A DNA stretch of 64,000 nucleotides from an uncultured Anaerolineaceae bacterium (GTDB lineage Bacteria; Chloroflexota; Anaerolineae; Anaerolineales; UBA4823), in assembly GCA_964633225.1 (NCBI GenBank), contig CAZWFQ010000004.1, forward strand, positions 13,512 through 77,511. The letters are read 5' to 3'. The translations under genes and the position numbers were made by a program. Positions within the stretch are counted from its first letter, which is position 1. Every line of letters starts with the position of its first letter. Positions 23,051 through 56,686 of the stretch are shown here, piece after piece. The notes under the pieces are model-generated. The model was not told the DNA's origin, made no database searches, and saw nothing but the letters and a program-made list of their open reading frames with translations.

Positions 23051-23072
23051 CGCGATATCACGGGCAAGAACA

Positions 23073-24068
23073 TCATTTCTCGCCCGCCTCGATCAAAGCT
23101 TCTCGCCTGCGGCGGTACTCGATGATTGGGCCGTCCCCGGCGATCATCTTCTCGCCCATTCTCAGTTGAGAGCGCAAAGGCCGCTGGGTCAGCACCACGC
23201 GCCGGTCCTGGCGTTCGATGTACAGGTTGCCCAGGTTGCCGGCCAATTCAAATACCTGGCGCAGCACGGGTGTCTTCACGGTGTGGTAAGTGCGCAGGTA
23301 AAGCAGCGTGTTCTCATCATCCACCGGCACAAAAGCAATGAACAGGTGCAGATCCCCCAGCCAATTGTGCCAGATATTGGGGAAGCGGAACTGGATCTGC
23401 GGGCGCTTGTCAGCCGGCGGCATCTCAGAAGCCCTGAGCGGCTTCTGGCCGCGCTCCACCTCACCGTCATACCACAGGTCGATCCGGTCGTGCCCGCCCG
23501 GAAATTCGGTGACGGTGTAGCGCGGACCGTTGATCACGGTCTTATTGCCGCGCCCGATGCTGTTGGCATGCACAAAGGGCAGGTGCACCACGTCCAATTG
23601 ATTCTCAATCGCACGTGAATAATGGGTTTTCCAATGGTCCACAAAGGTGGTGTAAACATAACGCCCGTCTCCCATGAAGTCAAATTCGGGCAAGGGTGGA
23701 TACTCGGCTTGCGGCGCTCCCCACCAAACGTAAACCAGGCCGTGCGCCTCGCGTACCGGATAAGCACGCACATTGAAAGCCTTGGGAACTTCGGCGCTGC
23801 GCCCATTAGCCGGGATAAGCGTACAGCGTCCGCTGGGATCGAACTCAAAGCCGTGGAATGGGCATTGGATGCCATCCCCTTGCACCTTGCCCGCGCTCAA
23901 CGCCACCCCCCGGTGCGGGCATAGGTCGATCGCACAGGCCGCCTTCCCCTGGGCATCGCGCCAGAAAACCAACTTCTCGCCCATGCGCGTCACGCCAACC
24001 GGCCGGTGGCGTGGGATTTGGCGCCCTTCAAGCAGTGGATACCATTGGTTGGGGATCATTTGCCACAT
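23073..24068 (-). CDS. Rieske [2Fe-2S] domain oxygenase
   Basis: Rieske ligands 'CPHRGVALS...CPFHGFEF', followed by a ~200-aa catalytic-like domain. Confidence 0.85.
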   Translation of the reverse strand: MWQMIPNQWYPLLEGRQIPRHRPVGVTRMGEKLVFWRDAQGKAACAIDLCPHRGVALSAGKVQGDGIQCPFHGFEFDPSGRCTLIPANGRSAEVPKAFNVRAYPVREAHGLVYVWWGAPQAEYPPLPEFDFMGDGRYVYTTFVDHWKTHYSRAIENQLDVVHLPFVHANSIGRGNKTVINGPRYTVTEFPGGHDRIDLWYDGEVERGQKPLRASEMPPADKRPQIQFRFPNIWHNWLGDLHLFIAFVPVDDENTLLYLRTYHTVKTPVLRQVFELAGNLGNLYIERQDRRVVLTQRPLRSQLRMGEKMIAGDGPIIEYRRRREALIEAGEK

Positions 24069-42300: not shown

Positions 42301-45300
42301 AGCTGAATGGATTCCTCCAGCACCGCGAGGGCTTCTTCATAACGCCCCAACGCCAGGCAGCAGCGTCCCATCGTTTCCATATACAATCCAAGGCGGCGGT
42401 AATCTTGCAAACTGCGCGCCAACCCAACCGCCTGTTCCATATATTCAAGCGCCCGGCTATACAGGCCCATCGACCAGTGGATTACCGCCAGGTTATTGTA
42501 AGATACGGCCTGGCCGTTCTTGTCGTCTAGGCTGCGGCGGATTGCAAGAGACTGTTCATGATGATCACGCGCCTGGGCAAAATCGGTCACCGCCAGGCCG
42601 ATCGAGGTCAGGGCCTTGGCCTGCCCGCCCAGGTCTCCGATCTGGCGGAACAATTTCAGGGCCCGCTGTGCATATTGAATGGCAGGTTCCGTGCGGCCGG
42701 CGCGCATGTGCAGGTGGCCCAATAGGCGCCAGTTTTCTGCCTGCCCGGCAGGGTCGTTCAAGGTCTCGTACAACTTCAAGGCCTGCTCGTGGCAGCTCTG
42801 GGCATGATCGAAACGAGACAATTGATAATACAAATCACCCAAGCCGGTCAGCGCCTGGGCTTCCAATAGTTGTTGACCCGATCGGTGCGCCAATTCCACC
42901 GCGGCCTCAGCCGAACGCAGGGCTTCTTCTTTTTGCCCCCGTAAGCCGGCCAGCTCAACCTTGCGCCTGAGCGCTTCCACCTGGCGAGGCAAGTCCCCCA
43001 GCGCTTGGGCCAGGTCGCTCATCACCGCCAGTTCCTTCTGCTGCTGCTCACGCTCGCCCAGGGCCACATAACAGCGCTCGCGCCCGGCATGCAGGTCAAA
43101 AGATAGGGCTGGCTCAACCAGTTCGGGATGGCTTTCAAGCAATGTAATTGCTTCTGTATAGTACCGCAGGGCAGTTTGGATTGCCTGGCGCCGCATGGCA
43201 CTCTCAGCCGCCTGGCGTAGGACCTGCAAACTTTGCTGTGTATCGCCGACCCGCACAGCATGCCAGGCCAACCAATCCACAATTTTTTCCAACGGATACA
43301 GCCGGCGCAGCGCTTCAATGATGCGCTGGTGGCGTTCCCGTCGGTCAGGCTCCGTGAGGGTCTGGTAAACCACCTGCCGCATGGCATCGGTGGTAAAGCC
43401 GTACACCTGCACGCCGCCGCGCTGGCTGACTTCCAAGACATGCTGGCTTACAGCCCGCTGTACCAGCCCCATCGCTGTATCACCAGCGCGGCCGCACACT
43501 TCTAACAGCACGTCAATTTCCAGCCACTCGCCCATCGCCGCCGCCCACTGCAACAGCCCCAAGAGCGTTGCATCCAGGCGCTTCAAGTGACGGCGAGCCG
43601 CATCCTGGATATCAGCCGGCAGGGTCAGGGCATCCAGGTCAATCTGCCATTGGCTGCTATCAAAGCGCAGCAGTTCTTCTTCCACCAGGCTTTGCATCAC
43701 GCTTTGAATGAAGGTTGGGTTGCCTCCGGTCTCTGCCATCAACCGCGGCAGCAAACCATCCGGCAGCGGCGCACTGGCAATCTCTTCGGCGCCCAACATC
43801 GAACGGACGAAGACCTCAACGTCTGCCTCGTTGAGCGGCAGCAGAGAGATCAGGTTGCCGATCCGCGCCGGGCTGGCTTGAATTTCATCCGCCCGTCCCG
43901 TCGCCTCGTCAATTAAGCCCAGCAGCGGGTGAGATGCAGTGATCTCATCATCCCGGTAAGAGCCCACCAAGAGCAAGCGCCGGGTCCCGGCCTTCTGGCT
44001 GAGGGCTTCCAGCAAGGCAATTGACTCAGCATCTGCATACTGCAAATCTTCCAAGATGATGACCAGCGGCTGGTTGACCGCCAACAGCAGGTCAGCCGCC
44101 GAGTTCCGCAGCCAGGCCGGGTCCTTCTCTCCCGCCTGAGTGGCGACCAAATTAAACTGTGCCCCCAGCTCAGGCATCAAAGCATTCAGCGCAGGGCCAT
44201 GTTGGGCCAGGGCCTTGGGCTGGTGGGTGCGGATGAGGGGGATCAACATGCTGAAAATGTCCATCCAGGGACGGTAGGGGATGCGATCTTGCTTCTGACA
44301 ATCCCCCTCGCACACCAACACCCGCTGCACCTGGGCGCGCGCCTTGAACTCGCGCCCCAGGCGCCGCTTCCCCATGCCCGCCGCCCCCGTGATCAACACC
44401 AGGTTCCCCTGCCCCTGCAGCATATGCATCAACAAACCCTGTAGATGGGCCAGCTCGGCTTCTCGTCCCACAAAGCGCGCGCTCTGGATATAGCCGCGCC
44501 GGGTCTCGCGCGTTTCCACCGGGAATTGCAATCCACTGATCACATTGATGGCCTCAATGACCTGGCTGGCACTGGCATAGCGGTTAGCCGGCTCTTTTTC
44601 CAGCAGCTTCATGATCAGGTCCTGCAAACCCTGCGGCACATGGCGCACCAGGTCGCTGGGCAGCTCGGGCTGTTCCTCCAGGTGGCGGCGCATGAGCACA
44701 ATGCTGCTGGTGTCGCCAAAAGGCAGGCGGCCGGTCACAATCTCGTACAGCGTCACCCCCAGCGAATACAGGTCGGCGCGTTGATCCACCTCGCCGCCAC
44801 GGATCATTTCGGGGGCAATATAATCGGGGGTGCCTCGCACCTTGATCTGACCACCGGCACGCGGCTCTCCAATCAGGCCAAAGTCCATCAACTTCACCTG
44901 GCCAGAGGGTGTGATCTGGATATTGCGGGATTTTACGTCGTAATGAATAAGGCCGCGTGAGTGGATGTAGCTCAGAGCGCGGCAGACCTGAACAATGATC
45001 TCATACAGCCAGGTATAATCCGGCGCTTGCCCGGCCTCCGGCACCTTCAGATGCCGCTGGGCCAGGCTGAGCAGGTCCTCGCCCTGCACATACTGCATGG
45101 TGTAATAGAACGCGTTGAGATGTTCGGCATCCGGCAACTCTTCAACATTGAAGATGCTGCCAAAATCGTACACTTCCACCAGGTTAGGATGGTGCAGTTG
45201 GCCTAGCGTAGCAAACTCATACTTGAACTGCGCCATACTGCGGTCACCGATATGCTCGGTACGTACCAGCTTCAGGGCCATCACCTGATCAGAACGCAAA

Positions 45301-45386
45301 GGATCCTTGACCAGGTACACGATACCCATGCCGCCCTGGCCAAGTTTGCTGATGATGCGGTAGCGATGGTTAATGGTTGCTGACAT
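39339..45386 (-). CDS. multidomain signalling protein: Ser/Thr kinase - AAA/STAND ATPase - TPR array - 3x GAF - HisKA/HATPase
   Basis: Kinase: 'LGQGGMGIVY', 'ALK', 'IHYDVKSRNI', 'DFG', 'GTPDYIAPE'. P-loop 'ITGAAGMGKRRL' and 'VIILEDLQYAD'. Long TPR-like region. GAF-like blocks. H-box 'AAHELRTPLT'. 'NAIKFT', 'DNGIGI', 'GPGLGLAI'. Confidence 0.9.
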   Translation of the reverse strand: MSATINHRYRIISKLGQGGMGIVYLVKDPLRSDQVMALKLVRTEHIGDRSMAQFKYEFATLGQLHHPNLVEVYDFGSIFNVEELPDAEHLNAFYYTMQYVQGEDLLSLAQRHLKVPEAGQAPDYTWLYEIIVQVCRALSYIHSRGLIHYDVKSRNIQITPSGQVKLMDFGLIGEPRAGGQIKVRGTPDYIAPEMIRGGEVDQRADLYSLGVTLYEIVTGRLPFGDTSSIVLMRRHLEEQPELPSDLVRHVPQGLQDLIMKLLEKEPANRYASASQVIEAINVISGLQFPVETRETRRGYIQSARFVGREAELAHLQGLLMHMLQGQGNLVLITGAAGMGKRRLGREFKARAQVQRVLVCEGDCQKQDRIPYRPWMDIFSMLIPLIRTHQPKALAQHGPALNALMPELGAQFNLVATQAGEKDPAWLRNSAADLLLAVNQPLVIILEDLQYADAESIALLEALSQKAGTRRLLLVGSYRDDEITASHPLLGLIDEATGRADEIQASPARIGNLISLLPLNEADVEVFVRSMLGAEEIASAPLPDGLLPRLMAETGGNPTFIQSVMQSLVEEELLRFDSSQWQIDLDALTLPADIQDAARRHLKRLDATLLGLLQWAAAMGEWLEIDVLLEVCGRAGDTAMGLVQRAVSQHVLEVSQRGGVQVYGFTTDAMRQVVYQTLTEPDRRERHQRIIEALRRLYPLEKIVDWLAWHAVRVGDTQQSLQVLRQAAESAMRRQAIQTALRYYTEAITLLESHPELVEPALSFDLHAGRERCYVALGEREQQQKELAVMSDLAQALGDLPRQVEALRRKVELAGLRGQKEEALRSAEAAVELAHRSGQQLLEAQALTGLGDLYYQLSRFDHAQSCHEQALKLYETLNDPAGQAENWRLLGHLHMRAGRTEPAIQYAQRALKLFRQIGDLGGQAKALTSIGLAVTDFAQARDHHEQSLAIRRSLDDKNGQAVSYNNLAVIHWSMGLYSRALEYMEQAVGLARSLQDYRRLGLYMETMGRCCLALGRYEEALAVLEESIQLTQDSGNRWAESAASITKGQVLLAQGLPGAALEVTWRAGNILRELKATELSAALAWRAAAHLQLGQWELAYDISGEATRLASALGTGGDYPMQDVWWIHYQVLEACPAACERIENEAWDSLQQAHLAMLNGIATLSDEALRRSYLNKVQINRAILLEWTRQMARRTGAQHADFSEAPEIEQTEAVEPARIQDKLRRVLNISVQMNETHDAESLLHYVMDQVIELSGAERGFLVLVDEAGQMNLRVARGMAEDELARAQAEISYTVLGEVAQSKKPVLLQDAMADERFSRQSSVLELNLRSVLCVPLLTRAELVGMIYADNRTVSGRFSQEDMELMVIFANQAASAIENARLYEELEAWTHTLEQRVAERTAELEAANQVLSRRAVQLEASSQVGQQATSILALDELLDQVVRLIHERFGYYNVSVWLIAPTRKTIILQASAGRAQVPLSRSYTVLDFEASSIIAHVCRTSQYRLVNDVRAEPDYLSVKELPETRSELTLPLRMGSRSIGVLDIQAEQIDAFGPDDLWTMQILADQIAIAIRNAQLYQAETDRRNLADALRQAGREMSSSLELGELTGRVLDQMAMVLPYERGSLWLQEDRVLVSVSQRGFPEGEEDLRMPIRPGDVYNQMVERQGALVVDDVTREAGWKQAEGLPLNYSWLGVPLISKGRTLGMISLTRCEAGAFMEYDATVATTFAVQAAAALENASLYDQIKRFNEQLEQMVMQRTEELNRAYHNLERLDRNKSDFINVAAHELRTPLTITSGYAQVAQTHPTVAANPEIKKLVDGIVSGSNRMLEVVNSMLDISKITSQTFTLYKGLIPLVFVIDAVGEKYQRAMKERQISFEMVGLEELPPVQADADQLTKVFGQLIVNAIKFTPDGGKITVSGKLLPPKRAGQPERVELVVTDNGIGIDPAYHELIFEKFYQTGEVSFHSSGQTKFKGGGPGLGLAIARGIIEAHGGRIWVESPGHDEETCPGSSFHIILYV

Positions 45387-45549: not shown

Positions 45550-46770
45550 TTAACCCTGATCCATTTCTTTGGCGGCTGGAACCTTGAACTTCGTCCAAAC
45601 CAGCAGGATACTTGACAGCGCTGCGATCGCCGTCAGCCAGAAGGGCAATGCCGGGTTAAAACGCGACCATAACTGCCCGCCCAGCCAGGGGGCTGGCAAT
45701 GAGATCAAACCCAGGCTGGTCCACAACAAGCCAAAGGCCATACCGCGCATGTTTTCAGGGATGGCCTTAGAGATCAGAGAATCGTAAGCCGGGTTCATCA
45801 GCCCATAGCCTGCCCCCAGGACCATGAACGATAACACAAAACCATAGAAGCCCTCCGCCAAAACGAAAATCGTTAGCCCAACCCCTTCCAGTAGAAAACC
45901 CAGGGCGATCGCCCGCCGCTCACCGATGCGGTCTGAAAGCCAGCCCGCCGGGAAGGTGACGACCATCAAAACCAGGCCAAGCAGCGCATTCAAGTAGCCA
46001 ATCTGCTCTACCCCCAATTGGCCAACTTCTGATAAGTAAAGCGGTTGTAAATTGCTCGATAAGTTATAGCCCACATCCCGCACGCCATCGGTGAGAAATA
46101 TCCAGGTCACCAGGCCTCCTGCGGTCAATAGGGCTGCCAGGCTTCTCAGGCCGTGCTTGAATCCTTCGAGGGTGGGTTTCTCTGTAGGCCGTGGACTGCG
46201 GAATTGTTCAGCTAACGCCATCCAAATCCGCAGGGCAGTGGCCGACAGATAAGTGAGGCAAGCTGCCAGGAATAGGGTATGGAAACTGAACGAGCCCGCC
46301 AGCCAGCCGCTCAACAACGGGCCAACGATCGTCACGATCATGAACAGTCCGTTGGTCAGCCCGAATACCCTGCCGCGCGTCTCTTCGGTTGAATTTTCGG
46401 CCACAAAAGGGCCGTAAGATGGGGCAATCAGCGCGCCGGAGAAAAATTCGAGCCCCAAAGAAACAATGATCCATTCCCAGGATGGAGAAAGAATGAAGCC
46501 AATGTAGCCAAATGAACCACCAATAGCGCCGATGGCAATGATCCGCAGGCGGCCCACTTTGTCTGAAAGCCATCCCCCAAAGATTTGCAGGGCCATGGGT
46601 ACCATGCCTGCAATTGAGTAAACCAGACCAACCTGGGGCGGGGTGGCCCCCATCTCATCTGCCAGGTAGATAGGCAGCAGTGTATAGACCATGATCCCAG
46701 CGATGTTGGCCAGGATCATGGAGGCAATGAACCAACGCAAGGTCGGCGTGAGCAGCCGGAATGCGCGCAT
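45550..46770 (-). CDS. MFS transporter
   Basis: 12 TM-like segments with 'GWLSDKVGRLR' and 'GWLSDRIGERR' MFS loop motifs. Only 29 bp downstream of the AAA+ gene, with no terminator between them. Confidence 0.9.
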   Translation of the reverse strand: MRAFRLLTPTLRWFIASMILANIAGIMVYTLLPIYLADEMGATPPQVGLVYSIAGMVPMALQIFGGWLSDKVGRLRIIAIGAIGGSFGYIGFILSPSWEWIIVSLGLEFFSGALIAPSYGPFVAENSTEETRGRVFGLTNGLFMIVTIVGPLLSGWLAGSFSFHTLFLAACLTYLSATALRIWMALAEQFRSPRPTEKPTLEGFKHGLRSLAALLTAGGLVTWIFLTDGVRDVGYNLSSNLQPLYLSEVGQLGVEQIGYLNALLGLVLMVVTFPAGWLSDRIGERRAIALGFLLEGVGLTIFVLAEGFYGFVLSFMVLGAGYGLMNPAYDSLISKAIPENMRGMAFGLLWTSLGLISLPAPWLGGQLWSRFNPALPFWLTAIAALSSILLVWTKFKVPAAKEMDQG

Positions 46771-46799: not shown

Positions 46800-49571
46800 T
46801 CACGGCAGAAGCTGTACTTCCCGGGCACCCGGCACATCGGCGGGGATGAAGGTATTAAGATCCACCTTCTCTGTGCCGGCTTGCGATGCCCGTTCAGCCA
46901 GAGAGGCCTTCATATCCAAGAGCAGCTCTCCAACCAGGCGTGCGTTGCCAAAGCCGCGCCCATCTTGCAACCTTCTCGCCTTAAAATATGCTTCTAATCC
47001 TTCTTGCACCCCTTCTTCCCAACGGTAACCTTCGGCCTCTGCCAAACGCGTGAAGATCTGCCACAGTTCTGCGGAAGTAAAATCTGAAAATTCGATCGAA
47101 CGATTGAATCGAGAACGCAACCCGGGGTTGCTTTGAATGAAATATTCCATCTCCGTGGGATAACCCGCACAGATCACCACCAGCCGTTTCCGGTGATCTT
47201 CCATAGCTTTGACCAGGGTATCAATCGCTTCTTGACCATAGTCCTGGTCGCTGCCCCGCACCAATGAATAGGCCTCGTCAATGAACAGCACGCCATCCAG
47301 GGCCTCTCGGATGCGCTCGCTGGTCTTCAGGGCGGTCTGCCCCAAGTAACCCGCCACCAGGTCGGCCCGGCCCACCTCCACACAATGTCCTTTTCGCAGC
47401 AGGCCCAGGCTCTGGCAGAATCTTCCCACCAGCCTGGCGACGGTCGTTTTTCCGGTGCCGGGGTTTCCGGTGAAGAGCATGTGCGGCATCCGCAGCGCGC
47501 TTACCGTGTTGGAACCATTCAGCACCTGTCGATCTTGCTCCAATTGGATCACCCGCACAATCCGGCGCAAGGCATCTTTCACCGGCATCAAGCCCACCAG
47601 GTCATCCAACTCTTCAAAGAGGCGATCCAAATCTGGCGGCGGGGGCGATAAATACGGTCTATACTCAGCCGGGAGGTCGGCTTCATCCAGGGGTGCATTC
47701 TTATCGAGACGATTGCGCACAATCCGGTCTGCCCGGCGGCGAGCAAGTCCCTCTGCCAGAGAGCGCATCTCGCCTGCGTTCCCAAAATGCTCATCCCGCC
47801 CATCATACAATCCGGCGACCACATCCTTCAGCTTGTTCAACACGGCCCCAGGGCACTGGAGTCTCTTTTTGGCCAACATACCCAGCAAGACTTGTTCCAA
47901 TTCCTCCTGGCTGTAATCTGGAAAATCCAGGATGTGATCTCTGGGAAAACGTCGTCTCAAACCGGGGTTCGAGTCGAGGAATTTCTGCATCTTGCCAGGA
48001 TACCCCGCCGCAATCACCACCAAACGGCCGCGCTCGTTTTCCATGCGTGCCAATAAGGTCTCGATCGCTTCTTGCCCATACCCGCCTCGCTCCTCCTCTG
48101 CCAGGGCGTAAGCCTCATCGATGAACAACACCCCATCCAACGCCTGTTGGATCAGGGCGTTGGTTTTCAAGGCAGTTCCCCCCACATGTTCTGCAACCAG
48201 GTCTGCCGCCCGGGCTTCCACCAGGTGGCCGCGCCTTAACAGCCCCATCTCATACAGCATCTCACCCATCAGCCGGGCAGCGGTGGTTTTGCCAGTTCCC
48301 GGGTTGCCGGTAAAAATCATGTGTAGGGATGGGGGGTCCCCCACCCCATCAGGTCCTTGATTTGAATAATGTAGCCAGGCAAAGGATCCCAGCTCTCTCA
48401 GTTTATCCTTTACGGTTTGCAGGCCGACCAATTCCGCCAGCCTTTGGGCCGCAGGCCTGTCTCCAGCCTTGCTGGCTGAGATCCAGCCGCGTTCTCGGAT
48501 GGACTTCCGATCTAAACGTTGGAGGGTCTGCAAACGGCGCAGCCATTGGGCTGCCAAGAGGTCTTCCGCCGCCAGGTCGCGCAGCAGGCGCGGCAAGTGG
48601 GCTTCATCCACCTCCAGCTTGGGCCGGAGCGCATTCACCAGCCGGGCCAGTTCACGCGGCCCTGGGCCGGGCAGTTGTACCAGGTGATAGAGCTTGCGGC
48701 CTTCGTTTTTCTGGCGGGTAATAAATTGGCGCAGTTCCGGCGCCGGGATCGAATCTGCCGCCTGGCACAGGGCATCATACCCGTCCACCGAGAACAACAA
48801 GTAGCAAAGGTTGCTGTTTGCCGCCGGCAGACGCGCCCAATCCCCAATCAAGCCCCCAAGCGTGCGCGGGTCCTCGTGATAGCGGAATATGGTCTCGGCT
48901 TGCTCCAGGATCACAGCCGTACGGGGTCCGTTCGTTTCTTTCATCAAACTATCCAAAAAGCGCACCGCATGTGCGTCCCCCATGCCCACACTGGCCATTT
49001 CAGGATTTTGTAAAACATCCACTGGTTGGTGAGCGGTGGATGCGGCAACCGGGTTTTGGTAACCGGCCTGGCTATCAGCCAGGTGGTGAGGAGACTGAGT
49101 CTCTGCCAACAACTGCACATTCCCTAATGGCCCCCCCGCCAAGAAGGTCATCACACCCGCCTCGATCTGTGCGCCAGCCTGTCGCAATCCCCGCCGAGAG
49201 GGATTCGAACCCACAGCCTCGGCCTTGACAGGGCTTCGCTTCCCGTTTTGAGAAGCGCTGGTTGGCTGGAAACTTGCTAACTGGGTGGAGCGATCGTCCA
49301 GGTAATGGATCGAACCATGCGGAGAGAAGAAGACAATGCGCTCAAAACCTCGTTGGCTCAGGCAGGCGTGTAAGAGGCGGTTGATCGGATGTTCTTGTCC
49401 TTCAGCATCCAGGTGCGTATCATCAACCCCCTTGCCATATAAGATCACAAAGCGCGTATCCAGGTCAACTGGAACCACCATCCCATCCCGTTCAACCGAG
49501 CCAGGCAAATCCTGTGCTTTCATTAAACTGTCTACCGATTGAGATACCATCGAAAAACCACACCAAATCAA
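46800..49571 (-). CDS. large ATPase: ~430-aa unassigned N-terminal region + two CbbX/SpoVK-type AAA+ modules
   Basis: Module 1: 'FTGNPGTGKTTAARLMG', 'VLFIDEAYAL', 'VIAAGYPGKM...NPGLRRRF'. Module 2: 'FTGNPGTGKTTVARLVG', 'VLFIDEAYSL', 'VICAGYPTEM...NPGLRSRF'. The ATG at 49571 abuts the stop of the upstream gene. Confidence 0.85.
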   Translation of the reverse strand: MIWCGFSMVSQSVDSLMKAQDLPGSVERDGMVVPVDLDTRFVILYGKGVDDTHLDAEGQEHPINRLLHACLSQRGFERIVFFSPHGSIHYLDDRSTQLASFQPTSASQNGKRSPVKAEAVGSNPSRRGLRQAGAQIEAGVMTFLAGGPLGNVQLLAETQSPHHLADSQAGYQNPVAASTAHQPVDVLQNPEMASVGMGDAHAVRFLDSLMKETNGPRTAVILEQAETIFRYHEDPRTLGGLIGDWARLPAANSNLCYLLFSVDGYDALCQAADSIPAPELRQFITRQKNEGRKLYHLVQLPGPGPRELARLVNALRPKLEVDEAHLPRLLRDLAAEDLLAAQWLRRLQTLQRLDRKSIRERGWISASKAGDRPAAQRLAELVGLQTVKDKLRELGSFAWLHYSNQGPDGVGDPPSLHMIFTGNPGTGKTTAARLMGEMLYEMGLLRRGHLVEARAADLVAEHVGGTALKTNALIQQALDGVLFIDEAYALAEEERGGYGQEAIETLLARMENERGRLVVIAAGYPGKMQKFLDSNPGLRRRFPRDHILDFPDYSQEELEQVLLGMLAKKRLQCPGAVLNKLKDVVAGLYDGRDEHFGNAGEMRSLAEGLARRRADRIVRNRLDKNAPLDEADLPAEYRPYLSPPPPDLDRLFEELDDLVGLMPVKDALRRIVRVIQLEQDRQVLNGSNTVSALRMPHMLFTGNPGTGKTTVARLVGRFCQSLGLLRKGHCVEVGRADLVAGYLGQTALKTSERIREALDGVLFIDEAYSLVRGSDQDYGQEAIDTLVKAMEDHRKRLVVICAGYPTEMEYFIQSNPGLRSRFNRSIEFSDFTSAELWQIFTRLAEAEGYRWEEGVQEGLEAYFKARRLQDGRGFGNARLVGELLLDMKASLAERASQAGTEKVDLNTFIPADVPGAREVQLLP

Positions 49572-50981
49572 TTACCGGTCGTTTGGAAGCTGGGCTTCCT
49601 GGGTGCGATACGTACCCCTGGTCTCGGCTGCCTGGCGAGGCGACCGGTTTTCCATTCGCTGGGCCGTATAAGGCGTCCGCTCATCCACCGCCACCAGGTT
49701 GCTGACCAGAAGCCCGGTTTGTTGCAGTGAGCGTTGGATCTCGCGGGCACGCTGCCTCAACTCATGTTGGGTGCGCGGCTGCCGGTCGCTGGCAATCAGG
49801 TGCAAACGGTTTTCAGGGGTTGCTGCCCCCTCCGGGTCCACCTGGACCACAATCTCACTGCCGCTGCGATCGATAACCCTGGCAAAGAAGCCGTCCTTTT
49901 CACTGCCGCTGTAGCTTGCCTCCGTCAGGGCATACCCCTGCCCGAATAGAGCCCGCACCACAATATCGGCAATGTTCAACCGTAGCTGAGAAGATAAAGC
50001 TGCCATGCGCGCATCGCCCACCAGGTCACTCAGCGCGTGTTGTTTTTCTGGCAAGACCTGTTCGTACAACTCGCGCAGATTTTCGACCGAGTAGACTTCC
50101 AAACCCCGGTCAATGGAACGCCCGATCTGCCTCAGCTCTTGCAGCATGGCGCGGATGCCTCCTTGCGTCCAGTAATCCACATCCAGGTTAACCCCCAATT
50201 CCTGGTTCGCCAGGTTGATCGCTGGGATGTGGGCGCTGCCCTGTGTCATGCGCAGGAGGACCTTCACCTGTTCTCGGCAAGCCTGCTGCAAGAAACGGTA
50301 TTCTGACCAGGCAGTTTCGCAGCTCAGGCGCATCTCAGCCAGTTGCAAGTAAGCGTCTTGGGCCTGCGAAATTGCGGCCTCATGCAGCCCCTGTTCCTGG
50401 TTCTGGTCTGCCTGGAGCAATCGGTTTTCGATCCCGTCCAACCTGCCGGGTTGAAAGTGATCATGGGGGTAATTAGCCTGGATGAAAGCGACCAGAGCCA
50501 TTCCAGCATCAATCCAATCACGCGCCAACGATTGCTTGGCGCGCTCTCCATCAGCTTGTTTGCGCATGCTGTGCGCAAACTGCCGGAACTGCTCTTGAGT
50601 TTGGTGATACAGCTCTTGTTCGACCTTTTTATGGGCTTCGAAGAGGTGTTTCGCCAGGTGATCTGTCTGATCCCAGAGCGTCCCCGCCAGGTGGTTCATA
50701 TCATCCTGGATCTGTGCCTGGTAGGCGACGAGTGCCTGCTGGGTGAAGGATTCCAGTTCCACCAGGTTGCCACTGACCTCGCCCACGGTATCCAGCAGTT
50801 GCTGCTGGCGAGATTGAAACGCCTCATAATCCCGGTCTAAAGACTGCCGTGTGGCACGCGTGGCATCTTCAACCAGCTTCGGATAATCCTCATGCATAAA
50901 GCGCGCTCGCATATCCACTTCGTGCAAGCGCCGGTATTCTTCTTCGGTAATGGTAATGGTGGCCTCTTTATGACCGCTCAT
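49572..50981 (-). CDS. hypothetical coiled-coil-rich protein (469 aa), no recognisable family
   Basis: Long Q/E/L/R-rich helical segments and a C-terminal ~100-aa mixed region ('GYALTEASYSGSEKDGFFARVIDRSGSEIVVQVDPEG'). 4-bp overlap with the radical-SAM gene. Confidence 0.7.
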   Translation of the reverse strand: MSGHKEATITITEEEYRRLHEVDMRARFMHEDYPKLVEDATRATRQSLDRDYEAFQSRQQQLLDTVGEVSGNLVELESFTQQALVAYQAQIQDDMNHLAGTLWDQTDHLAKHLFEAHKKVEQELYHQTQEQFRQFAHSMRKQADGERAKQSLARDWIDAGMALVAFIQANYPHDHFQPGRLDGIENRLLQADQNQEQGLHEAAISQAQDAYLQLAEMRLSCETAWSEYRFLQQACREQVKVLLRMTQGSAHIPAINLANQELGVNLDVDYWTQGGIRAMLQELRQIGRSIDRGLEVYSVENLRELYEQVLPEKQHALSDLVGDARMAALSSQLRLNIADIVVRALFGQGYALTEASYSGSEKDGFFARVIDRSGSEIVVQVDPEGAATPENRLHLIASDRQPRTQHELRQRAREIQRSLQQTGLLVSNLVAVDERTPYTAQRMENRSPRQAAETRGTYRTQEAQLPNDR

Positions 50982-51643
50982 CGAAGCCCTCCAGCCGCCA
51001 GGCTGCTTTGTCGCAACGCGGCAATGTCTTGCATTACCGCTGAAAACACCCCCAGCGGTGGCACCCCCACAAACATCAACTCGCCGTCTCGCACCAAGAC
51101 CTCCACTCGCCTTGGGGCATCCTCCAGGGCAGATCCCACCAGGCGCGCCGAGAGATAATGCACGGTTTGGTTGGAAGAGCCTCGCAAACCGTGGTTATCA
51201 TTCAAATCAGCCCGGTAAGGCCCATCAATTAAAACATCGATCATATCTAGCAGCCTGGGAACGCCCGATCCATTCGACATCCGTTTGAGTTGAGAAAGTT
51301 CGTATCCCGTGAAGACGATCACGTTGATCTCCCGCAGGCGCCTGCCTGCCCGGATCAATTCTGCCAGCGCCTTCGCTTGCAGCATGGGCTCTCCCCCCGA
51401 AATGGTCCAGCCCGTAACCCGGTCATCTGCCAGCAGTTCTTCAGCCAGTTGGTGCGGGCTGACCAACCTGGCGGGCCGGTTTGGGATCCAGCCGGGGGCA
51501 ATGCACCCCTGGCAGCGGAATGGGCAGCCCTGCACCCATACCGCTGCCCGCCATCCCGGACCAAGCGCCTGGGTGGCAGGTAGACTGGCAGCAATATTCA
51601 GGTTATCGGATTGAATCCTAGAATTGAACCCTGGCTGGGTCAT
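50978..51643 (-). CDS. NrdG/PflA-like radical SAM activase-family protein (orphan)
   Basis: 'LGPGWRAAVWVQGCPFRCQGCIAPGW' is a CxxxCxxC cluster in the GPG.R....F..GC context typical of glycyl-radical activases. 'ISGGEPM' is the SAM-binding motif. No glycyl-radical enzyme gene in the window. Confidence 0.8.
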   Translation of the reverse strand: MTQPGFNSRIQSDNLNIAASLPATQALGPGWRAAVWVQGCPFRCQGCIAPGWIPNRPARLVSPHQLAEELLADDRVTGWTISGGEPMLQAKALAELIRAGRRLREINVIVFTGYELSQLKRMSNGSGVPRLLDMIDVLIDGPYRADLNDNHGLRGSSNQTVHYLSARLVGSALEDAPRRVEVLVRDGELMFVGVPPLGVFSAVMQDIAALRQSSLAAGGLR

Positions 51644-51748: not shown

Positions 51749-51777
51749 ATCATAGCACATTTGTTCTAATAAATCAA
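51749..51777 (-). promoter_or_regulatory. promoter P1 with embedded palindromic operator (TAGAACAAATGTGCTA)
   Basis: Minus strand: TTGATT-N17-TATGAT. The 16-bp near-palindrome at 51753-51768 fills the spacer and overlaps the -10. Confidence 0.65.
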
Positions 51778-51893: not shown

Positions 51894-51922
51894 AATATAG
51901 CACATATGTTCTATTTAGGCAA
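51894..51922 (-). promoter_or_regulatory. promoter P2 with embedded palindromic operator (TAGAACATATGTGCTA)
   Basis: Minus strand: TTGCCT-N17-TATATT. The operator at 51898-51913 sits in the same register as in P1, 145 bp upstream of it. Confidence 0.6.
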
Positions 51923-52045: not shown

Positions 52046-52573
52046 TCAATTCTCACCATAACCAACCTCCTGTAAGCACTGATAAACCGCCCAGCGATCT
52101 TCTTCTCCCAACACCTTGATTCCCAGGGCGGCAAACCGCTTGTGGTCCGGCTCACTGAGAGCCAGCGCATCACGATACACAGCCATCAACCGGCCCGGGT
52201 CATCATCAGCCGCCACCCGGTTAAGAGAAACCTTCCCACATGCCTGGCACACCTGAACCAGCATCAGCTCACCTGCCTGGTGCGGCGCATAACGGTTCCG
52301 CCCTGGCTTAAAACTCAAGCCAAGCGGGCGCATGGGGGCGCGGCACACCGATAACCTATCTCCAGCCTGGTATAGGTCCAGGTGGCGCGACCAAAGGCAG
52401 TACGGACAATGGTTACGGTTCTTAACCCCTGACAGCACCGGATCAGCAGAGACGAATCCCTGGCAGTTCAGGCAGCAGAAGTCTCCGCCTGCCAGCATCT
52501 TCGGCCCAGCCAGCCGGAAAAGCTGGCTGGGCCTGCTACGAGAACGGAATTTTTCCGGCAGCGGGCGGGTCAT
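52046..52573 (-). CDS. RNHCP domain-containing zinc-ribbon protein
   Basis: Literal 'RNHCPYCLWSRHLD' motif plus 'CLNCQG' and 'CQACG' pairs. 4-bp overlap with rsgA. Confidence 0.8.
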   Translation of the reverse strand: MTRPLPEKFRSRSRPSQLFRLAGPKMLAGGDFCCLNCQGFVSADPVLSGVKNRNHCPYCLWSRHLDLYQAGDRLSVCRAPMRPLGLSFKPGRNRYAPHQAGELMLVQVCQACGKVSLNRVAADDDPGRLMAVYRDALALSEPDHKRFAALGIKVLGEEDRWAVYQCLQEVGYGEN

Positions 52574-53619
52574 AACTCCTCCCGCAATCCGATGAACGAA
52601 TGATAACGCCGCACGCTGACCAGCCCCTCGTTGACCGCCTTTCGGATGGCACAGCCCGGCTCCTCCAGGTGCTGGCAGTCCAGACCAAAACGGCAGCGTC
52701 CAACCAGCGGGCGGATCTCAGGGAATAGCATACCCAGGTCATCGGGATGCACATCCCACAAGCCAAACTCTCGCATGCCCGGCGTATCCACAATCGCGCC
52801 GCCAAAGGGCAGATCAAACATCTCGAGGTGCGAGGTGGTGTGACGGCCTTTGCCGGTTGCCTGGCTGACCGCGCTGACACGCAGCCCCAGGCCCGGCTCT
52901 AAGGCATTCATCAGCGAGGTCTTGCCCACCCCCGACTTGCCCACCAGCACAGAAACCCGCCCTGCCAAAGCCTGGCGCAAGGCATCCAGGCCCTGCCCCG
53001 TAACTGAGCTTAGCAGCAGAGACTGGTAACCAAGCTGATCATACGCTTCCAATGCCTCTGCAATTTCTGGCTTCAGCAGGCCGTTTTGATCCTGCACCAG
53101 GTCGATCTTGGTCAGCACGATCAACACCGGTATGCCCGAGGCCTCTGCTGAAACCAGGTAACGGTCCAGCAAGTTCCATTTTGGTGCCGGATCAGCCGCC
53201 GCCAGCACCGCTAACACCTGGTCGGCATTGGCCACGATGGTCTGCTCGAAAGGATGCGCCCCCGGCATGGGAGAACGGCGCCTCAGATGCGTCCGGCGCG
53301 GCAGCACTTCAACGATCATGCCCCGGTCGTCCCCAGCTTCCACATAGCGCACCTGGTCGCCGATAGCGACCGGATCGCTGTGATCGAGCTCTTTGACTGC
53401 CTGCACCACCTGCCGCCGAGAATTTGGGTCGGCTGTGGGATAGATCAACAGCTTATGCAATTTATTCGAGAGCGTGCAGACAAGCACGCGCTCTTGTGCA
53501 TGGACATGATAATGTCCAATTGTCTTTTTATACACCACTCCGCGGCCAGAGCCATCCTGGTCTGCCTTAAACAGGTCAAGATGGTTGCAAAGGTCAGTGT
53601 GGTCAAACATGCTACTCAC
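52570..53619 (-). CDS. rsgA: ribosome small-subunit-dependent GTPase A
   Basis: Circularly permuted GTPase: 'VLTKIDL' precedes 'GKSGVGKTSLMNAL' and 'DTPG'. C-terminal zinc motif 'CRFGLDCQHLEEPGC'. The start is uncertain (GTG 53619, ATG 53610 or TTG 53649). Confidence 0.9.
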   Translation of the reverse strand: MSSMFDHTDLCNHLDLFKADQDGSGRGVVYKKTIGHYHVHAQERVLVCTLSNKLHKLLIYPTADPNSRRQVVQAVKELDHSDPVAIGDQVRYVEAGDDRGMIVEVLPRRTHLRRRSPMPGAHPFEQTIVANADQVLAVLAAADPAPKWNLLDRYLVSAEASGIPVLIVLTKIDLVQDQNGLLKPEIAEALEAYDQLGYQSLLLSSVTGQGLDALRQALAGRVSVLVGKSGVGKTSLMNALEPGLGLRVSAVSQATGKGRHTTSHLEMFDLPFGGAIVDTPGMREFGLWDVHPDDLGMLFPEIRPLVGRCRFGLDCQHLEEPGCAIRKAVNEGLVSVRRYHSFIGLREEL

Positions 53620-53688
53620 GGCGAGTATTTCCTCTCTGGCCTGGGGCAAACCGGTGCGTCGTAACGATTTCGGCTGCTACCCAGGCAT

Positions 53689-54160: not shown

Positions 54161-54661
54161 ATGATCCATAAACTGCTTACTGCCGTTGACCAGACCTTCG
54201 GCATCGAGCGCGCCAGCGCCCACTGTGATATCCCCTGCGGCATTTACGATCCTATCATTGCCCAGATCAGCGCCCTGACCGTCGTGCGCATGCTCGACTT
54301 GATGACAGACCTGGAGAACAAGGGTGGCGAAAAAGGCAAAGACTACATTAACAGTATGTCTCGCTACGTCACCGTCAAAGAAGAACACGCCGAAAAGGCC
54401 AAAGCCGAGATCCGCATCATCTGGGGCGACTTCCTCAAAGCCCAGCATCTCGAAAAGCACCCCGAAACCCATGACCTGGTACACAAGATCATGCAGCTCG
54501 GCTCGAAGGTGCGCCAGACCACAGACCGCGAAACCGCCGTGCAGTTTGTCGAGGCCATCAACGAGTTTGCCCAGATCTTCTGGGAAGCCAAGGGCATTGC
54601 CACCAAGCGCGCCAAAGCCCCCTACGCCCCGGCCCTGGAGCTGGTTTACCCGGCCCTATAA
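54161..54661 (+). CDS. sodN: nickel-containing superoxide dismutase precursor
   Basis: Ni-hook 'HCDIPCGIYDP', preceded by a 20-aa propeptide ending '...ERASA'. Four-helix-bundle-length protein. Confidence 0.9.
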   Translation: MIHKLLTAVDQTFGIERASAHCDIPCGIYDPIIAQISALTVVRMLDLMTDLENKGGEKGKDYINSMSRYVTVKEEHAEKAKAEIRIIWGDFLKAQHLEKHPETHDLVHKIMQLGSKVRQTTDRETAVQFVEAINEFAQIFWEAKGIATKRAKAPYAPALELVYPAL

Positions 54662-54969
54662 TGTTCAAGCTGCTCAAGGTCACTGGCCAAAGCCTGGAAC
54701 CTGAGTACAATGGAGGGGATTTTGTTCTGGTGAGCAAAATCCCCTTTTTGCTTACCTCCCTGCGCCCTGGCAACGTGCTGGCCTTCCGCCAGCCGGGCTA
54801 TGGCACCTTGCTCAAACGCCTGGAGCGGATTGAGCCTGACGGCAGCCTGTACGTCTTGGGCACCCATCCCGCCAGCGTAGACAGCCGCCACTTTGGTCCC
54901 GTTCGCCGGCAAGATGTGGTGGGCAAGGTTGTCCTGCATGTGCGCCGCCCAGCCGCCGCTCATCGTTAA
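54661..54969 (+). CDS. sodX: S26-family peptidase, NiSOD maturation protease SodX-like
   Basis: 'VTGQSLEPEY' (Ser nucleophile motif GxSMxP-like) and 'LLKRL' (general-base Lys). Start overlaps the sodN stop (TAATG). Confidence 0.8.
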   Translation: MFKLLKVTGQSLEPEYNGGDFVLVSKIPFLLTSLRPGNVLAFRQPGYGTLLKRLERIEPDGSLYVLGTHPASVDSRHFGPVRRQDVVGKVVLHVRRPAAAHR

Positions 54970-54975
54970 TATTCC

Positions 54976-55914
54976 ATGCCCTCCCAACGCCCCCTCGTCC
55001 CGCCCGGCCTGGCCATCTTCTTCGGCATCCTGGCTGTTTCCACCGCCTCCATTTTTATTCGCTTCGCCCAACAAGAGGCCCCATCACTGGTAATTGCCGC
55101 CTGGCGGCTGAGCCTGGCGGCGCTGGTGCTGGCCCCGCTGGCCCTGGCGCGCCACCACCAAGAACTGCGGGCACTGACGCGCCGAGAGCTCGGGCTGGCT
55201 CTGCTCTCTGGGATTTTTCTCGCCATCCACTTTGCCACCTGGATCAGCTCCCTGGAATACACCTCAGTTGCCAGCTCAGTGGTCCTGGTCAGCACCACCC
55301 CGTTGTGGGTGGCGATCATCGCCCCCTTCACGCTCAAAGAGCGTTCCGGGCGTTGGGTCATCTTGGGCCTGGTCCTGTCCTTAAGCGGCGGCCTGGTGGT
55401 TGGCTTGAGCGACGCCTGCCAGTGGAGCGCCACTGGCCTGGCCTGCCCGCCCCTGGCCAGCTTTGTGCAGGGCAAAGCCTTCTTGGGCGACCTGCTGGCT
55501 GTGGCCGGGGCAGTGGCCGGTGCCAGCTACTTGCTCATCGGCCGGCGGCTGCGCAGCTTGCGCAACCCGCCCCTCTCGCTGGTGGGCTACATCTTTGTGG
55601 TCTATGGCATGGCCGCCCTGGTGTTGCTCGGCATCATGCTGGCGGCCGGGCTCAGCCCCTTTGGCTATTCTGGGCCCACCTATCTATGGTTCGCCCTGCT
55701 GGCCTTTGTGCCGCAGTTGATCGGCCATTCCACCTTCAATTGGGCCTTGGGCTATCTCTCGGCCGCCTATGTATCCATTACCTTGCTGGGCGAGCCAATC
55801 GGCTCCACCATCCTGGCCTATCTGCTGCTGCAAGAGAGTCCCTCGGGGCTCAAGATCTTGGGGGCGGTGCTCATCCTGACCGGCATCTACATTGCTTCGC
55901 GCGGGCAAAAATAG
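54976..55914 (+). CDS. EamA/DMT family transporter
   Basis: 10 TM segments in two EamA-like halves. 312 aa. Confidence 0.85.
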   Translation: MPSQRPLVPPGLAIFFGILAVSTASIFIRFAQQEAPSLVIAAWRLSLAALVLAPLALARHHQELRALTRRELGLALLSGIFLAIHFATWISSLEYTSVASSVVLVSTTPLWVAIIAPFTLKERSGRWVILGLVLSLSGGLVVGLSDACQWSATGLACPPLASFVQGKAFLGDLLAVAGAVAGASYLLIGRRLRSLRNPPLSLVGYIFVVYGMAALVLLGIMLAAGLSPFGYSGPTYLWFALLAFVPQLIGHSTFNWALGYLSAAYVSITLLGEPIGSTILAYLLLQESPSGLKILGAVLILTGIYIASRGQK

Positions 55915-55993
55915 AATCTCCCCCTCCCGATATGCTGGTAGAATAACTTCTAACCCCATTCTTTGTACGCTTCCAATCAACAAAGGAGCCCAA

Positions 55994-56551
55994 ATGCCCA
56001 ATATCGGAGTGAACGTTGCCGCCATCCAAGAGGACAAGATCCTGCTTACCCTGCGCAGCGATTTTGAGGTCTGGTGTTTGCCTGGCGGCGGCGTGGATGC
56101 CAATGAAAGCCTGGCCCAGGCTGCTCTGCGTGAGCTGAGCGAAGAGACCGGCCTGGAAGCCCGTCTTTTACACCTGGTGGGCCTGTATTCACGGCGCGAC
56201 TGGCTGAGCTGCGGCCTGCACGTGGCTGTCTTTTCGGGCCAGGTGACCGGTGGCACCCTACGCGCCCAACCCGAAGAAGTGCTCGAGATGCGCTTTTTTG
56301 GGCGCCACGAGCTGCCCGAGGCCATGCTGCTCGGCCACCGCCAGCGCTGCCTGGATGCCTTTGACGGCGTGTGCGGCGCGGTTTGGGCGCAAGATGGCGA
56401 CTGGCCCTTCCCCGCCGGGATGGACCGCCAGGAATTGTACGCCCGCATGACCCAATCGGGCCTTCCACCCGCCGAATTCTACCGCCGCTACGTTGGCAAG
56501 CCTGCCCCTGGCGGCGCCGCCCTGGAAGTGGCCGGGATAGAGAAGAAATAA
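55994..56551 (+). CDS. NUDIX hydrolase
   Basis: Nudix box 'GGGVDANESLAQAALRELSEETG'. Start taken at 'MPNIGVNVAAI'. Confidence 0.85.
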   Translation: MPNIGVNVAAIQEDKILLTLRSDFEVWCLPGGGVDANESLAQAALRELSEETGLEARLLHLVGLYSRRDWLSCGLHVAVFSGQVTGGTLRAQPEEVLEMRFFGRHELPEAMLLGHRQRCLDAFDGVCGAVWAQDGDWPFPAGMDRQELYARMTQSGLPPAEFYRRYVGKPAPGGAALEVAGIEKK

Positions 56552-56686
56552 AGCTCCGCTGGCAACCTGGCCCGGCCTGGTTTTCAGTTGACTGCAACCC
56601 GATTCTATGCTATTCTCACTTTCGTGAGCCCTTCCAAAGTCCCCCCTCCCCCTCAAGCATCTGAGCGCTCCTGGATCGAAATCTTA

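Follow-up and report, generated by a model that had tools for sequence, protein, structure and literature searches.

An SOS-type operator and conserved gene order mark a radical S-adenosylmethionine enzyme, a new helical protein family and a three-module AAA+ ATPase as a candidate DNA-damage-response unit of Anaerolineae

We analysed a 64,000-nt stretch of DNA from an uncultured Anaerolineaceae bacterium (contig CAZWFQ010000004.1 of assembly GCA_964633225.1; hereafter the window) and focused on an operon of three genes, which encode a small radical S-adenosylmethionine (SAM) protein, a 469-aa middle protein that we name HEL, and a large AAA+ ATPase. Our favoured reading, to which we give a probability of about 55%, is that the trio is an SOS-regulated operon of Anaerolineae in which the AAA+ ATPase and the radical-SAM enzyme both act on HEL. 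Its regulation and conservation are well supported, while the biochemistry is deduced from sequence.

The open reading frames (ORFs) that a first-pass annotation of this DNA had assigned to the trio were recovered on the minus strand, the third spanning 46800-49571 (923 aa) if its first possible start is used. The three genes are as follows:

50978-51643, minus strand: putative NrdG-clade radical-SAM gene, 221 aa (ORF list)
49572-50981, minus strand: HEL gene, 469 aa (ORF list)
46800-49550, minus strand: AAA+ ATPase gene, 916 aa from the ATG at 49550, or 923 aa if the TTG at 49571 is the start

The radical-SAM gene and HEL overlap by 4 bp, as noted previously, in an ATGA at 50978-50981, and a GGAGGG lies 6-7 nt ahead of the HEL ATG. 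The ATPase gene had been thought to begin with an ATG at 49571 that abuts the HEL stop. Because the codon at 49571-49569 is TTG and the first ATG lies at 49550, 21 nt past the HEL stop, the ATPase gene is closely spaced with HEL, and an abutting ATG is unsupported. An ortholog that is 84% identical (P0043) has a similar ATPase start (MVFQS versus MVSQS), and the NCBI gene call for the window ATPase (P0042, 907 aa) begins further downstream than the ATG at 49550.

Upstream of the operon, the "repressor-type twin promoters" described earlier correspond to two promoter-like sites, each with a palindromic operator:

51894-51922, minus strand: distal promoter P1, TTGCCT, 17-nt spacer and TG-extended TATATT (promoter scan and sequence)
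51898-51913, minus strand: SOS (LexA-type) box 1, TAGAACATATGTGCTA, in the P1 spacer and overlapping the -10
51749-51777, minus strand: proximal promoter P2, TTGATT, 17-nt spacer and TG-extended TATGAT (promoter scan and sequence)
51753-51768, minus strand: SOS (LexA-type) box 2, TAGAACAAATGTGCTA, in the P2 spacer and overlapping the -10

Both promoters are sigma-70-like, and in each a 16-bp palindrome extends across the spacer and the -10. A scan of the 64-kb window with the motif TAGAAC-N4-GT(T/G)CTA, allowing at most 2 mismatches in the 12 specified positions, identified boxes 1 and 2 as the sole such sites. A third near-match at 23067-23080 was dismissed as a chance occurrence, since its right half is poor and its position is the final part of a coding region that precedes a histidine-phosphatase gene. 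An Rfam search of the operon 5' region returned chance microRNA matches only.

The operator is conserved in orthologous loci. Of the 68 loci that could be assessed, 65 have a copy with at most 2 mismatches in the 300 nt upstream of the leading gene, and in the first ~45 loci, which were scanned whole (~450 kb), boxes occurred almost exclusively at the trio promoter. Eighty-one unique orthologous sites gave the consensus TAGAACATATGTTCTATAAT and overlapped a TAnnnT -10 in 59 cases (59/81); many of the orthologous boxes carry GTGC or GTAC instead of GTTC. The motif GAAC-N4-GTTC is that of LexA in Firmicutes and Actinobacteria (PMC3323433). In Anaerolinea thermolimosa IMO-1 (locus L025), recA is preceded by ttgacctgTTGAACAAATGTACTAtaat and the trio, ~4.5 kb apart, by the near-identical TAGAACAAGTGTACTAtaat; within the recA promoter (L025:800-1000) the operator TTGAACAAATGTACTAtaat overlaps the -10, with TTGAACAAATGTACTA overlapping TATAAT. 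A LexA box placed over the -10 keeps transcription repressed until RecA stimulates the self-cleavage of LexA. A box of this type has also been reported for Dehalococcoides, a member of the Chloroflexi. Because LexA-type boxes are present in the orthologous promoters and the same box is present at recA, the trio very probably belongs to the SOS regulon, and the conserved operator motif supports this regulation well. Where the first-pass annotation had spoken of a conditionally induced system, the LexA-type boxes allow the predicted inducing condition to be named as DNA damage. An NrdR operator was rejected as an explanation, since the spacing differs, the NrdR box having a conserved C and G that lie 8 nt apart and not 4, and since the box also precedes recA.

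In addition, we observed two further LexA-type boxes at locus L035 of an Anaerolineae metagenome-assembled genome (MAG), at L035:4651-5033 and L035:10107-10845. One lies ahead of a 120-aa ORF with a ribbon-helix-helix-like look, and the other directly 3' of the ATPase gene, ahead of a gene for a 223-aa membrane protein. Both are possibly additional SOS genes, and the membrane protein could be a division inhibitor.

To place the operon in a wider context, we assembled 87 distinct public loci by looking up gene contexts and by scanning two collections from a HEL seed, the genome scan using a 14-sequence HEL sub-alignment as its query. The loci are assigned to Anaerolineales, Anaerolineaceae, Anaerolinea, Levilinea or Chloroflexota, almost all of them Anaerolineae, and the named carriers are the cultured A. 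thermolimosa IMO-1 and, through a MAG assigned to that species, A. thermophila. Three contigs of 1.5-4 kb were binned outside these taxa, which probably reflects binning errors. The order radical-SAM, HEL, AAA+ on one strand was maintained in nearly all 87 loci at HEL identities down to ~25%: HEL has the radical-SAM gene as its immediate upstream neighbour in 79 of the 83 loci that could be assessed for it, and the AAA+ gene as its immediate downstream neighbour in 62 of 66. Overlaps or tight gene spacing likewise persist as HEL diverges to this level. Synteny across genomes independent of nrdD, which the first-pass annotation had put forward as a check, was borne out by these counts and by ~500 kb of flanking DNA in which no glycyl-radical enzyme or motif was found. 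These observations support the trio as a functional unit and not a chance neighbourhood.

A small number of loci depart from this arrangement. Loci L003 and L091 contain HEL and the AAA+ gene with the radical-SAM gene absent, L046-L048 contain the radical-SAM gene and HEL with the AAA+ gene absent, and L060 contains HEL alone. Because of these variants, HEL is the constant element of the system and each enzyme can be lost separately. The loci were found through HEL, so that its presence in all of them is given by construction and enzymes without HEL lie outside the sample. No case was found in which HEL is fused to the radical-SAM or the AAA+ enzyme.

HEL had been described as matching no recognised family, and in our searches Pfam, NCBIfam, PADLOC and PHROG likewise gave nothing. 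When 1.84 billion representative proteins were searched with a HEL profile, 509 clusters were returned at E<=1e-30, nearly all of 450-470 aa, and judged by its sequence relatives HEL is a new protein family that is both large and uniform. An AlphaFold2 (AF2) model built from 38 family members (predicted local distance difference test score, pLDDT, 77.8; predicted template modelling score, pTM, 0.68) displays a short N-terminal strand, long helices, a four-stranded sheet with a helix (residues 351-421) and a disordered basic tail. The earlier label of "coiled-coil protein" holds for the long helices and misses the invariant N-terminal strand motif and the C-terminal alpha/beta domain. The helical region varies in length through repeat insertions, as in structural coiled coils, and the longer variants contain additional coiled-coil repeats only. 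Foldseek comparison of the model with the PDB and BFVD yielded nothing at E<0.001; the C-terminal sheet and helix weakly resembled KA1, appendage and START-like domains, and other weak matches were to generic coiled coils, for example tape-measure and SMC proteins. Viral relatives were found neither by structure (BFVD) nor in PHROG.

The best-conserved stretch of HEL lies at its N-terminus:

50898-50981, minus strand: HEL N-terminal motif, residues 1-28, consensus MSGHKRATVTISEEEYRRLHEAEM

In the AF2 model this segment forms a strand (residues 3-9) and a helix (residues 13-28). Across 151 aligned members, Met1 and Ser2 are the sole strictly conserved residues (100%), followed by Lys5, Trp271 and Ala338 at 99% each; none of the glycines is invariant (Gly3 95%, Gly349 97%, Gly374 95%, Gly423 96%), and no cysteine is conserved. 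A motif search also found no RVxG-type glycyl-radical loop in HEL or the ATPase, as previously reported. We considered Gly3 as a radical site, given the likeness of M-S-G-[HYF]-K to the glycyl-radical S-G-Y, and rejected it as the default reading on the grounds that this position is Ala in 8 of ~150 members; one of these, the HEL of locus L043, has an adjoining radical-SAM gene. The N-terminal pattern K-R-x-T-V-T-I-S-E-E-x-Y-x-x-L resembles the strand and first helix of the ribbon-helix-helix proteins CopG and CcdA, and an hhalign comparison of the HEL N-terminus with 11 ribbon-helix-helix sequences entered by hand gave a weak match over 22 columns (probability 37%, P=3.6e-4).

The radical-SAM protein contains the cluster context GPGWRAAVWVQGCPFRCQGC that had been picked out earlier, with Cys40, Cys44 and Cys47 making up a CX3CX2C motif, together with an LGPGxR loop, GLRGSSNQ and a C-terminal extension of ~55 aa. 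It matches Fer4_12 (4e-30, Pfam) and phrog_626 (2e-23, PHROG), and its nearest family matches are NrdG models. Even so, it falls short of all curated NrdG and pyruvate formate-lyase (PFL)-activase cut-offs among NCBIfam-type hidden Markov models, reaching 86.2 bits against a cut-off of 126.1 for TIGR02491 NrdG (2e-24), 58.5 against 199 for PRK11121 NrdG, 35.4 against 131 for NrdG2 and 26.2 against 151.7 for NrdG3. No match was found among PDB sequences at E<=0.01 (phmmer), and public records name the protein "4Fe-4S single cluster domain-containing protein" or "PFL-activating enzyme". We aligned 34 orthologs with E. coli NrdG, the reference sequence being entered by hand, and found that LGPGxR, CX3CX2C, SGGEP and GLRGSSNQ are retained. 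Both LGPGWR...GCPFRCQGC and GLRGSSNQTVHYL are conserved across the orthologs and align to E. coli NrdG, and the alignment to NrdG is full-length, GLRGSSNQ included. The conserved C-terminal segment of ~55 aa is specific to the family, E. coli NrdG being without it, and the residues that follow the third Cys are I-A-P-x-W in the family but Y-N in NrdG.

In agreement with the earlier reading of the window, Pfam searches of its larger ORFs detected no glycyl-radical enzyme (NRDD, PFL-like or Gly_radical), and the sole R[VIT][CSA]G[YFW] match in window ORFs >=250 aa lies in an ORF outside the trio. There was likewise no NRDD or Gly_radical domain among the annotated neighbours of the trio loci and no glycyl-radical motif in ORFs >=250 aa across the ~500 kb of trio-flanking DNA. 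From the motifs and scores we infer that the enzyme belongs to the NrdG clade and is of the small "activase" type, and that it is not the housekeeping activase of an anaerobic ribonucleotide reductase (RNR). The first-pass annotation had allowed for the case that the radical-SAM orthologs are bona fide NrdG and the trio is non-syntenic; scores below the NrdG cut-offs and a gene order kept across loci go against this, although the best matches are still NrdG models. In one sub-lineage, a gene for a 132-aa 2x[4Fe-4S] ferredoxin lies 3' of the operon (L001:12315-12713, L046:2183-2581), directly after HEL in L046, where the ATPase gene is absent. This ferredoxin could be what supplies the radical-SAM enzyme with electrons.

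Pfam, NCBIfam and PDB matches confirmed that the ATPase contains two complete CbbX/SpoVK/EccA-type modules. The ~430 aa that precede them had been regarded as unassigned, and we found that they can be assigned as a degenerate AAA+ module, giving three modules in all:

48516-49463, minus strand: D0, degenerate AAA+ module, residues ~30-345 (alignment, AF2, Foldseek)
47631-48425, minus strand: D1, active-type CbbX/SpoVK/EccA module with GNPGTGKT, FIDEAY, AGY, NPGLRRRF and GNAGEMR
46821-47603, minus strand: D2, active-type CbbX/SpoVK/EccA module with an intact aromatic pore loop, LVAGYLGQTA

In alignment, D0 has the look of a decayed AAA+ module (RFxILYGxGVDD, TAVVxxQAET), and its AF2 model (pLDDT 73.9) displays a beta-alpha-beta core and a helical lid. 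Almost all of the 50 PDB matches that Foldseek listed were AAA+ ATPases at E ~1e-3, with Rpt subunits, FtsH, NSF/Sec18, Msp1 and Cdc48 as the nearest folds among the matches listed; D0 is probably non-hydrolysing. It carries a disordered, low-complexity insert (ATPase residues ~96-182, window 49004-49264) that is ~45 aa longer in the window protein than in most orthologs. Within the insert, Gly140-Pro141 (consensus L..GPLG) is invariant in 96 orthologs, so that it may be a short linear motif or a place of modification; its context is not that of a glycyl radical.

Among PDB structures, D2 matched those of CbbX (3ZUH and 3SYL, 4.7e-56) and of EccA1 (9e-43), and the ATPase matched AAA_lid_6 at 1.6e-15 (Pfam). 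D1 and D2 alike keep Walker A, Walker B, the GY of sensor 1, N-x-x-x-R and the sensor-2 Arg without exception in the 96 orthologs, and the clade signatures Ala515-Gly516-Tyr517, Ala795-Gly796-Tyr797, Asn528, Asn808, Arg533/534, Arg814, Arg596 and Arg871 are >=98% conserved. Features that define the SpoVK-EccA-like clade are GY in sensor 1, an Asn before the first Arg finger, a second Arg (sensor 2) and AAA_lid_6 (PMC11513918), and by these signatures D1 and D2 are members. The TIGR02881 score of 478.7 exceeds its cut-off solely as the sum of two modules (2 matched stretches), and no Rubisco, sporulation or ESX genes were found among the annotated neighbours of the trio loci. Characterised members of the clade are dedicated single-target chaperones recruited through variable N-domains (PMC11513918). 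By analogy, the trio ATPase probably shares this one-partner logic. A T7SS (type VII secretion) role of the EccA kind was rejected, as no EssC-type gene was found and the FtsK of the window, with alpha and gamma domains, is an ordinary FtsK.

Two further observations concern this protein. The D2 pore loop LVAGYLGQTA (47340-47369) contains V-A-G-Y-x-G, which agrees with most of the glycyl-radical fingerprint [IVT]-[CSA]-G-Y-x-[GACV]; the likeness is probably coincidental, because the homologous CbbX/SpoVK loop is LVG(Q/E)YIGHT. Six orthologs (P0072, P0078, P0096, P0132, P0138 and P0154) are full-length and carry a C-terminal fusion to a trypsin-like peptidase, an association reported to be absent from the SpoVK-EccA-like clade (PMC11513918). 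The P0078 locus (L009:2018-10264) additionally encodes three proteins, one Hsp70-like, one a coiled-coil protein of 307 aa and one with a double zinc ribbon, and there HEL is shortened to 392 aa and the LexA-type box is absent.

HEL is the one partner that no locus variant lacks, and on this ground we propose that both enzymes act on it. In undamaged cells LexA would repress the operon, and DNA damage would switch it on by the known LexA mechanism. The AAA+ protein could then recruit HEL through D0, in the manner of the narrow-target chaperones of its clade, while the D2 pore (LVAGYLGQTA) would engage a HEL terminus, either the N-terminal MS(G)xK-R-x-T-V-T-I-S or the disordered basic C-tail. 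Threading or pulling would assemble, activate or dismantle HEL oligomers, comparable to NSF with SNAREs or Vps4 with ESCRT-III. Enzymes of the NrdG/PflA type are small since they act on a partner macromolecule by hydrogen-atom abstraction, and the radical-SAM enzyme may carry out such a SAM-dependent abstraction on HEL or on a ligand that HEL holds. Our guess is that HEL serves as a DNA- or membrane-associated scaffold during damage, in nucleoid or division control or in the removal of proteins from DNA, a role that would fit SOS control. A more specific version, which we put forward tentatively and consider rather doubtful, is that the trio is an SOS effector machine in which an activase-type radical-SAM enzyme modifies the non-enzymatic scaffold HEL, or something bound to it such as DNA, and a three-tier AAA+ motor loads, activates or removes the scaffold.

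Several points weigh against the proposal that this is an SOS operon with HEL as the common target. HEL has no invariant Gly or Cys and so offers no obvious site for canonical NrdG-type activase chemistry, and its likeness to ribbon-helix-helix proteins is weak, with no such match in Pfam at E<=10 or in a PDB profile search. The recA-box control comes from a single genome, L025, and the divergent variant L009 is without the LexA-type box. A tblastn search of the fetched locus DNA with E. coli RecA and B. subtilis LexA as queries found no lexA, and recA in L025 only. These two queries, like the NrdG and ribbon-helix-helix control sequences, were entered by hand, and the search for nrdD covered the ~500 kb of flanking DNA.

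We weighed this proposal against other explanations of the same data. The radical-SAM protein might be a true NrdG for a class III NrdD encoded elsewhere, with SOS control boosting anaerobic deoxynucleoside triphosphates and with HEL and the AAA+ protein serving that pathway or being unrelated. This we regard as quite unlikely: the best matches are NrdG models (TIGR02491 2e-24, phrog_626 2e-23), the C-terminal RGSSNQ motif of NrdG is present and nrdD was sought in flanking DNA only, but the scores lie far under the equivalog cut-offs (86/126, 58/199, 35/131 and 26/152 bits), and the C-terminal extension and the I-A-P-x-W in place of Y-N set the protein apart. Moreover, it is translationally coupled to HEL in ~95% of loci with no glycyl-radical motif nearby, and HEL and the AAA+ protein would be left unexplained. 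An anti-phage or abortive-infection system that senses infection or prophage induction through SOS, with HEL as sensor or effector and the AAA+ protein as motor, is also unlikely. The trypsin-like peptidase fusions and the L009 variant with its Hsp70-like and zinc-ribbon proteins would suit such a system, and the control of defence genes by DNA-damage regulators in other bacteria is outlined in PMC12392091. In PADLOC-DB 2.0, however, the AAA+ protein gave weak, partial matches to IetA, mad8 and TRIP13 that are generic to the P-loop, the radical-SAM protein matched pVip alone (weakly, 3e-4) and HEL matched nothing; the components fit no single system's models, in line with the earlier statement that no described defence system is involved. 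The trio is also class-wide and sits among ordinary chromosomal neighbours, often with the same downstream genes, instead of in variable islands, no nuclease, toxin or NADase was found among the neighbouring genes examined, and HEL is without viral structural or PHROG relatives.

It is similarly improbable, in our assessment, that the three genes share an SOS promoter and otherwise function separately, with no assembly on HEL; the radical-SAM enzyme could, for example, serve in repair on its own, with HEL as a structural protein and the ATPase as a chaperone of general use. That either enzyme can be missing while the others are retained would be expected in this case, as would the lack of a canonical radical site in HEL, and the contacts of HEL with the two enzymes are proposed ones. 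Yet the fixed order and start-stop overlaps have survived despite HEL identities of ~25%, the AAA+ proteins characterised from this clade are chaperones with narrow targets, and small NrdG-type enzymes act on partner proteins. A very unlikely possibility is that some regulator other than LexA uses the palindrome as its operator, and that the operon responds to a signal other than DNA damage. LexA binding is predicted from the motif, no lexA was found in the fetched DNA and many boxes have GTGC or GTAC for GTTC; on the other hand, the motif equals the Gram-positive LexA box GAAC-N4-GTTC, a near-identical site lies in the A. thermolimosa recA promoter, and the 8-nt spacing of the NrdR box differs from the 4 nt seen here.

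Compared with known systems, the trio enzyme shares with the NrdG, PflA and YjjW activases a small Fer4_12/radical-SAM fold in which a GPGxR loop is followed by CX3CX2C, and with NrdG-type activases the SGGEP motif and the C-terminal RGSSNQxxH. It differs from them in its sub-cut-off scores, its ~55 extra C-terminal residues and its SOS-type operator, in having no adjoining glycyl-radical enzyme in the loci, and in being coupled to HEL, which has no invariant glycine. Both active ATPase modules carry the signatures of the CbbX/SpoVK/EccA1 clade, with CbbX structures matched at 5e-56. Unlike the known members, in which a TPR, beta-helix or small N-domain precedes one module, the trio ATPase is built as D0+D1+D2, is fused to trypsin in some orthologs and has a target that is not Rubisco, MurG or a T7SS substrate. 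With Gram-positive-type SOS units the trio has in common a GAAC-N4-GTTC operator placed over the promoter and conserved across a lineage, and SplB-like proteins provide a precedent for a radical-SAM gene under LexA control. However, the known SOS radical-SAM proteins are SplB-like (COG1533) or linked to uracil-DNA glycosylase (COG4277), whereas that of the trio is NrdG-like, and in contrast to imuA-imuB-dnaE2 and similar SOS cassettes the trio encodes no polymerase, nuclease or recombinase. NSF with SNAREs, and Vps4 with ESCRT-III or PspA-type polymers, likewise pair a classic-clade AAA+ motor of several tiers with a long helical protein whose terminal segment is conserved. NSF, Cdc48 and Rpt are among the nearest folds of D0, and the analogy is one of working principle only; SNAREs and ESCRT-III have no sequence or fold kinship with HEL, and the partnership in the trio is a proposed one. 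Literature searches for the combination of radical-SAM enzyme, HEL and AAA+ protein returned no description, which, with the PADLOC result, agrees with the first-pass view that it is unrecognised from metabolic, RNR or defence systems. The parts come from known superfamilies, and the unit fits no known kind of system, be it an RNR or PFL pair, CbbX/SpoVK/EccA, an SOS cassette or a catalogued defence system.

Beyond the trio, the window contains one further gene directly downstream on the same strand:

45550-46770, minus strand: major facilitator superfamily (MFS) transporter gene, MFS_1 5.5e-50 (Pfam)

As described earlier, this gene starts 29 nt beyond the ATPase stop with no terminator-like site in the gap, and it is probably cotranscribed with the trio in the window. 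It is nevertheless a lineage-specific passenger outside the conserved system, because it lies downstream of the trio only in the window and in the closest relative checked, L010. Immediately 3' of the MFS gene and likewise on the minus strand, 39339-45386 encodes a 2015-aa protein in which an N-terminal Ser/Thr kinase, an AAA/TPR-like region, GAF domains and a C-terminal histidine kinase can be made out by eye. Directly upstream of the trio promoters is a gene with an RNHCP domain (52046-52573, PF12647 6e-22), which has 4 bp in common with the end of rsgA (52570-53649), and this neighbour is shared only with the closest relatives, L006 and L010. The window (54161-58936) and the distant locus L001 (L001:1-6273, HEL 38% identical) have common neighbours near the trio, namely a Ni-superoxide dismutase with an S26-like maturation peptidase, an EamA transporter and FtsK.

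In ~18 of the 31 loci with enough downstream DNA, a three-gene cluster lies convergent to the AAA+ gene (for example L007:9666-13638; carriers are L003, L004, L007, L008, L013-L015, L018, L019, L022, L025, L028, L029, L031, L033, L041, L043 and L060). Its products are a TPR protein of ~330 aa and a paralogous pair of membrane proteins, one of ~354 aa with a sub-threshold SPFH/Band_7 match and one of ~558 aa with no Pfam match. The window lacks this cluster, no LexA-type box accompanies it, and in L060 it stands beside HEL with both enzymes absent; it could be a functional partner or mere ancestral synteny.

SOS regulons usually consist of repair, translesion-synthesis and division-control genes of known families, and the trio is a different kind of unit, which a whole bacterial class keeps under an SOS-type operator and whose HEL family comprises at least ~500 sequence clusters. 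The proposal can be tested in two cultured species, A. thermolimosa IMO-1 and A. thermophila (the latter via its MAG), and the three proteins are soluble and of ordinary size. If it is true, NrdG-type enzymes would have protein targets beyond glycyl-radical enzymes, and the CbbX/SpoVK/EccA chaperone clade would gain a role in the DNA-damage response. On the more specific reading as an SOS effector machine, it would be the first case of a radical-SAM enzyme paired with an AAA+ protein in the response to DNA damage, with a new substrate class for NrdG-type activases. The trio provides a concrete candidate for the SOS effectors of the filamentous anaerobic Chloroflexota.

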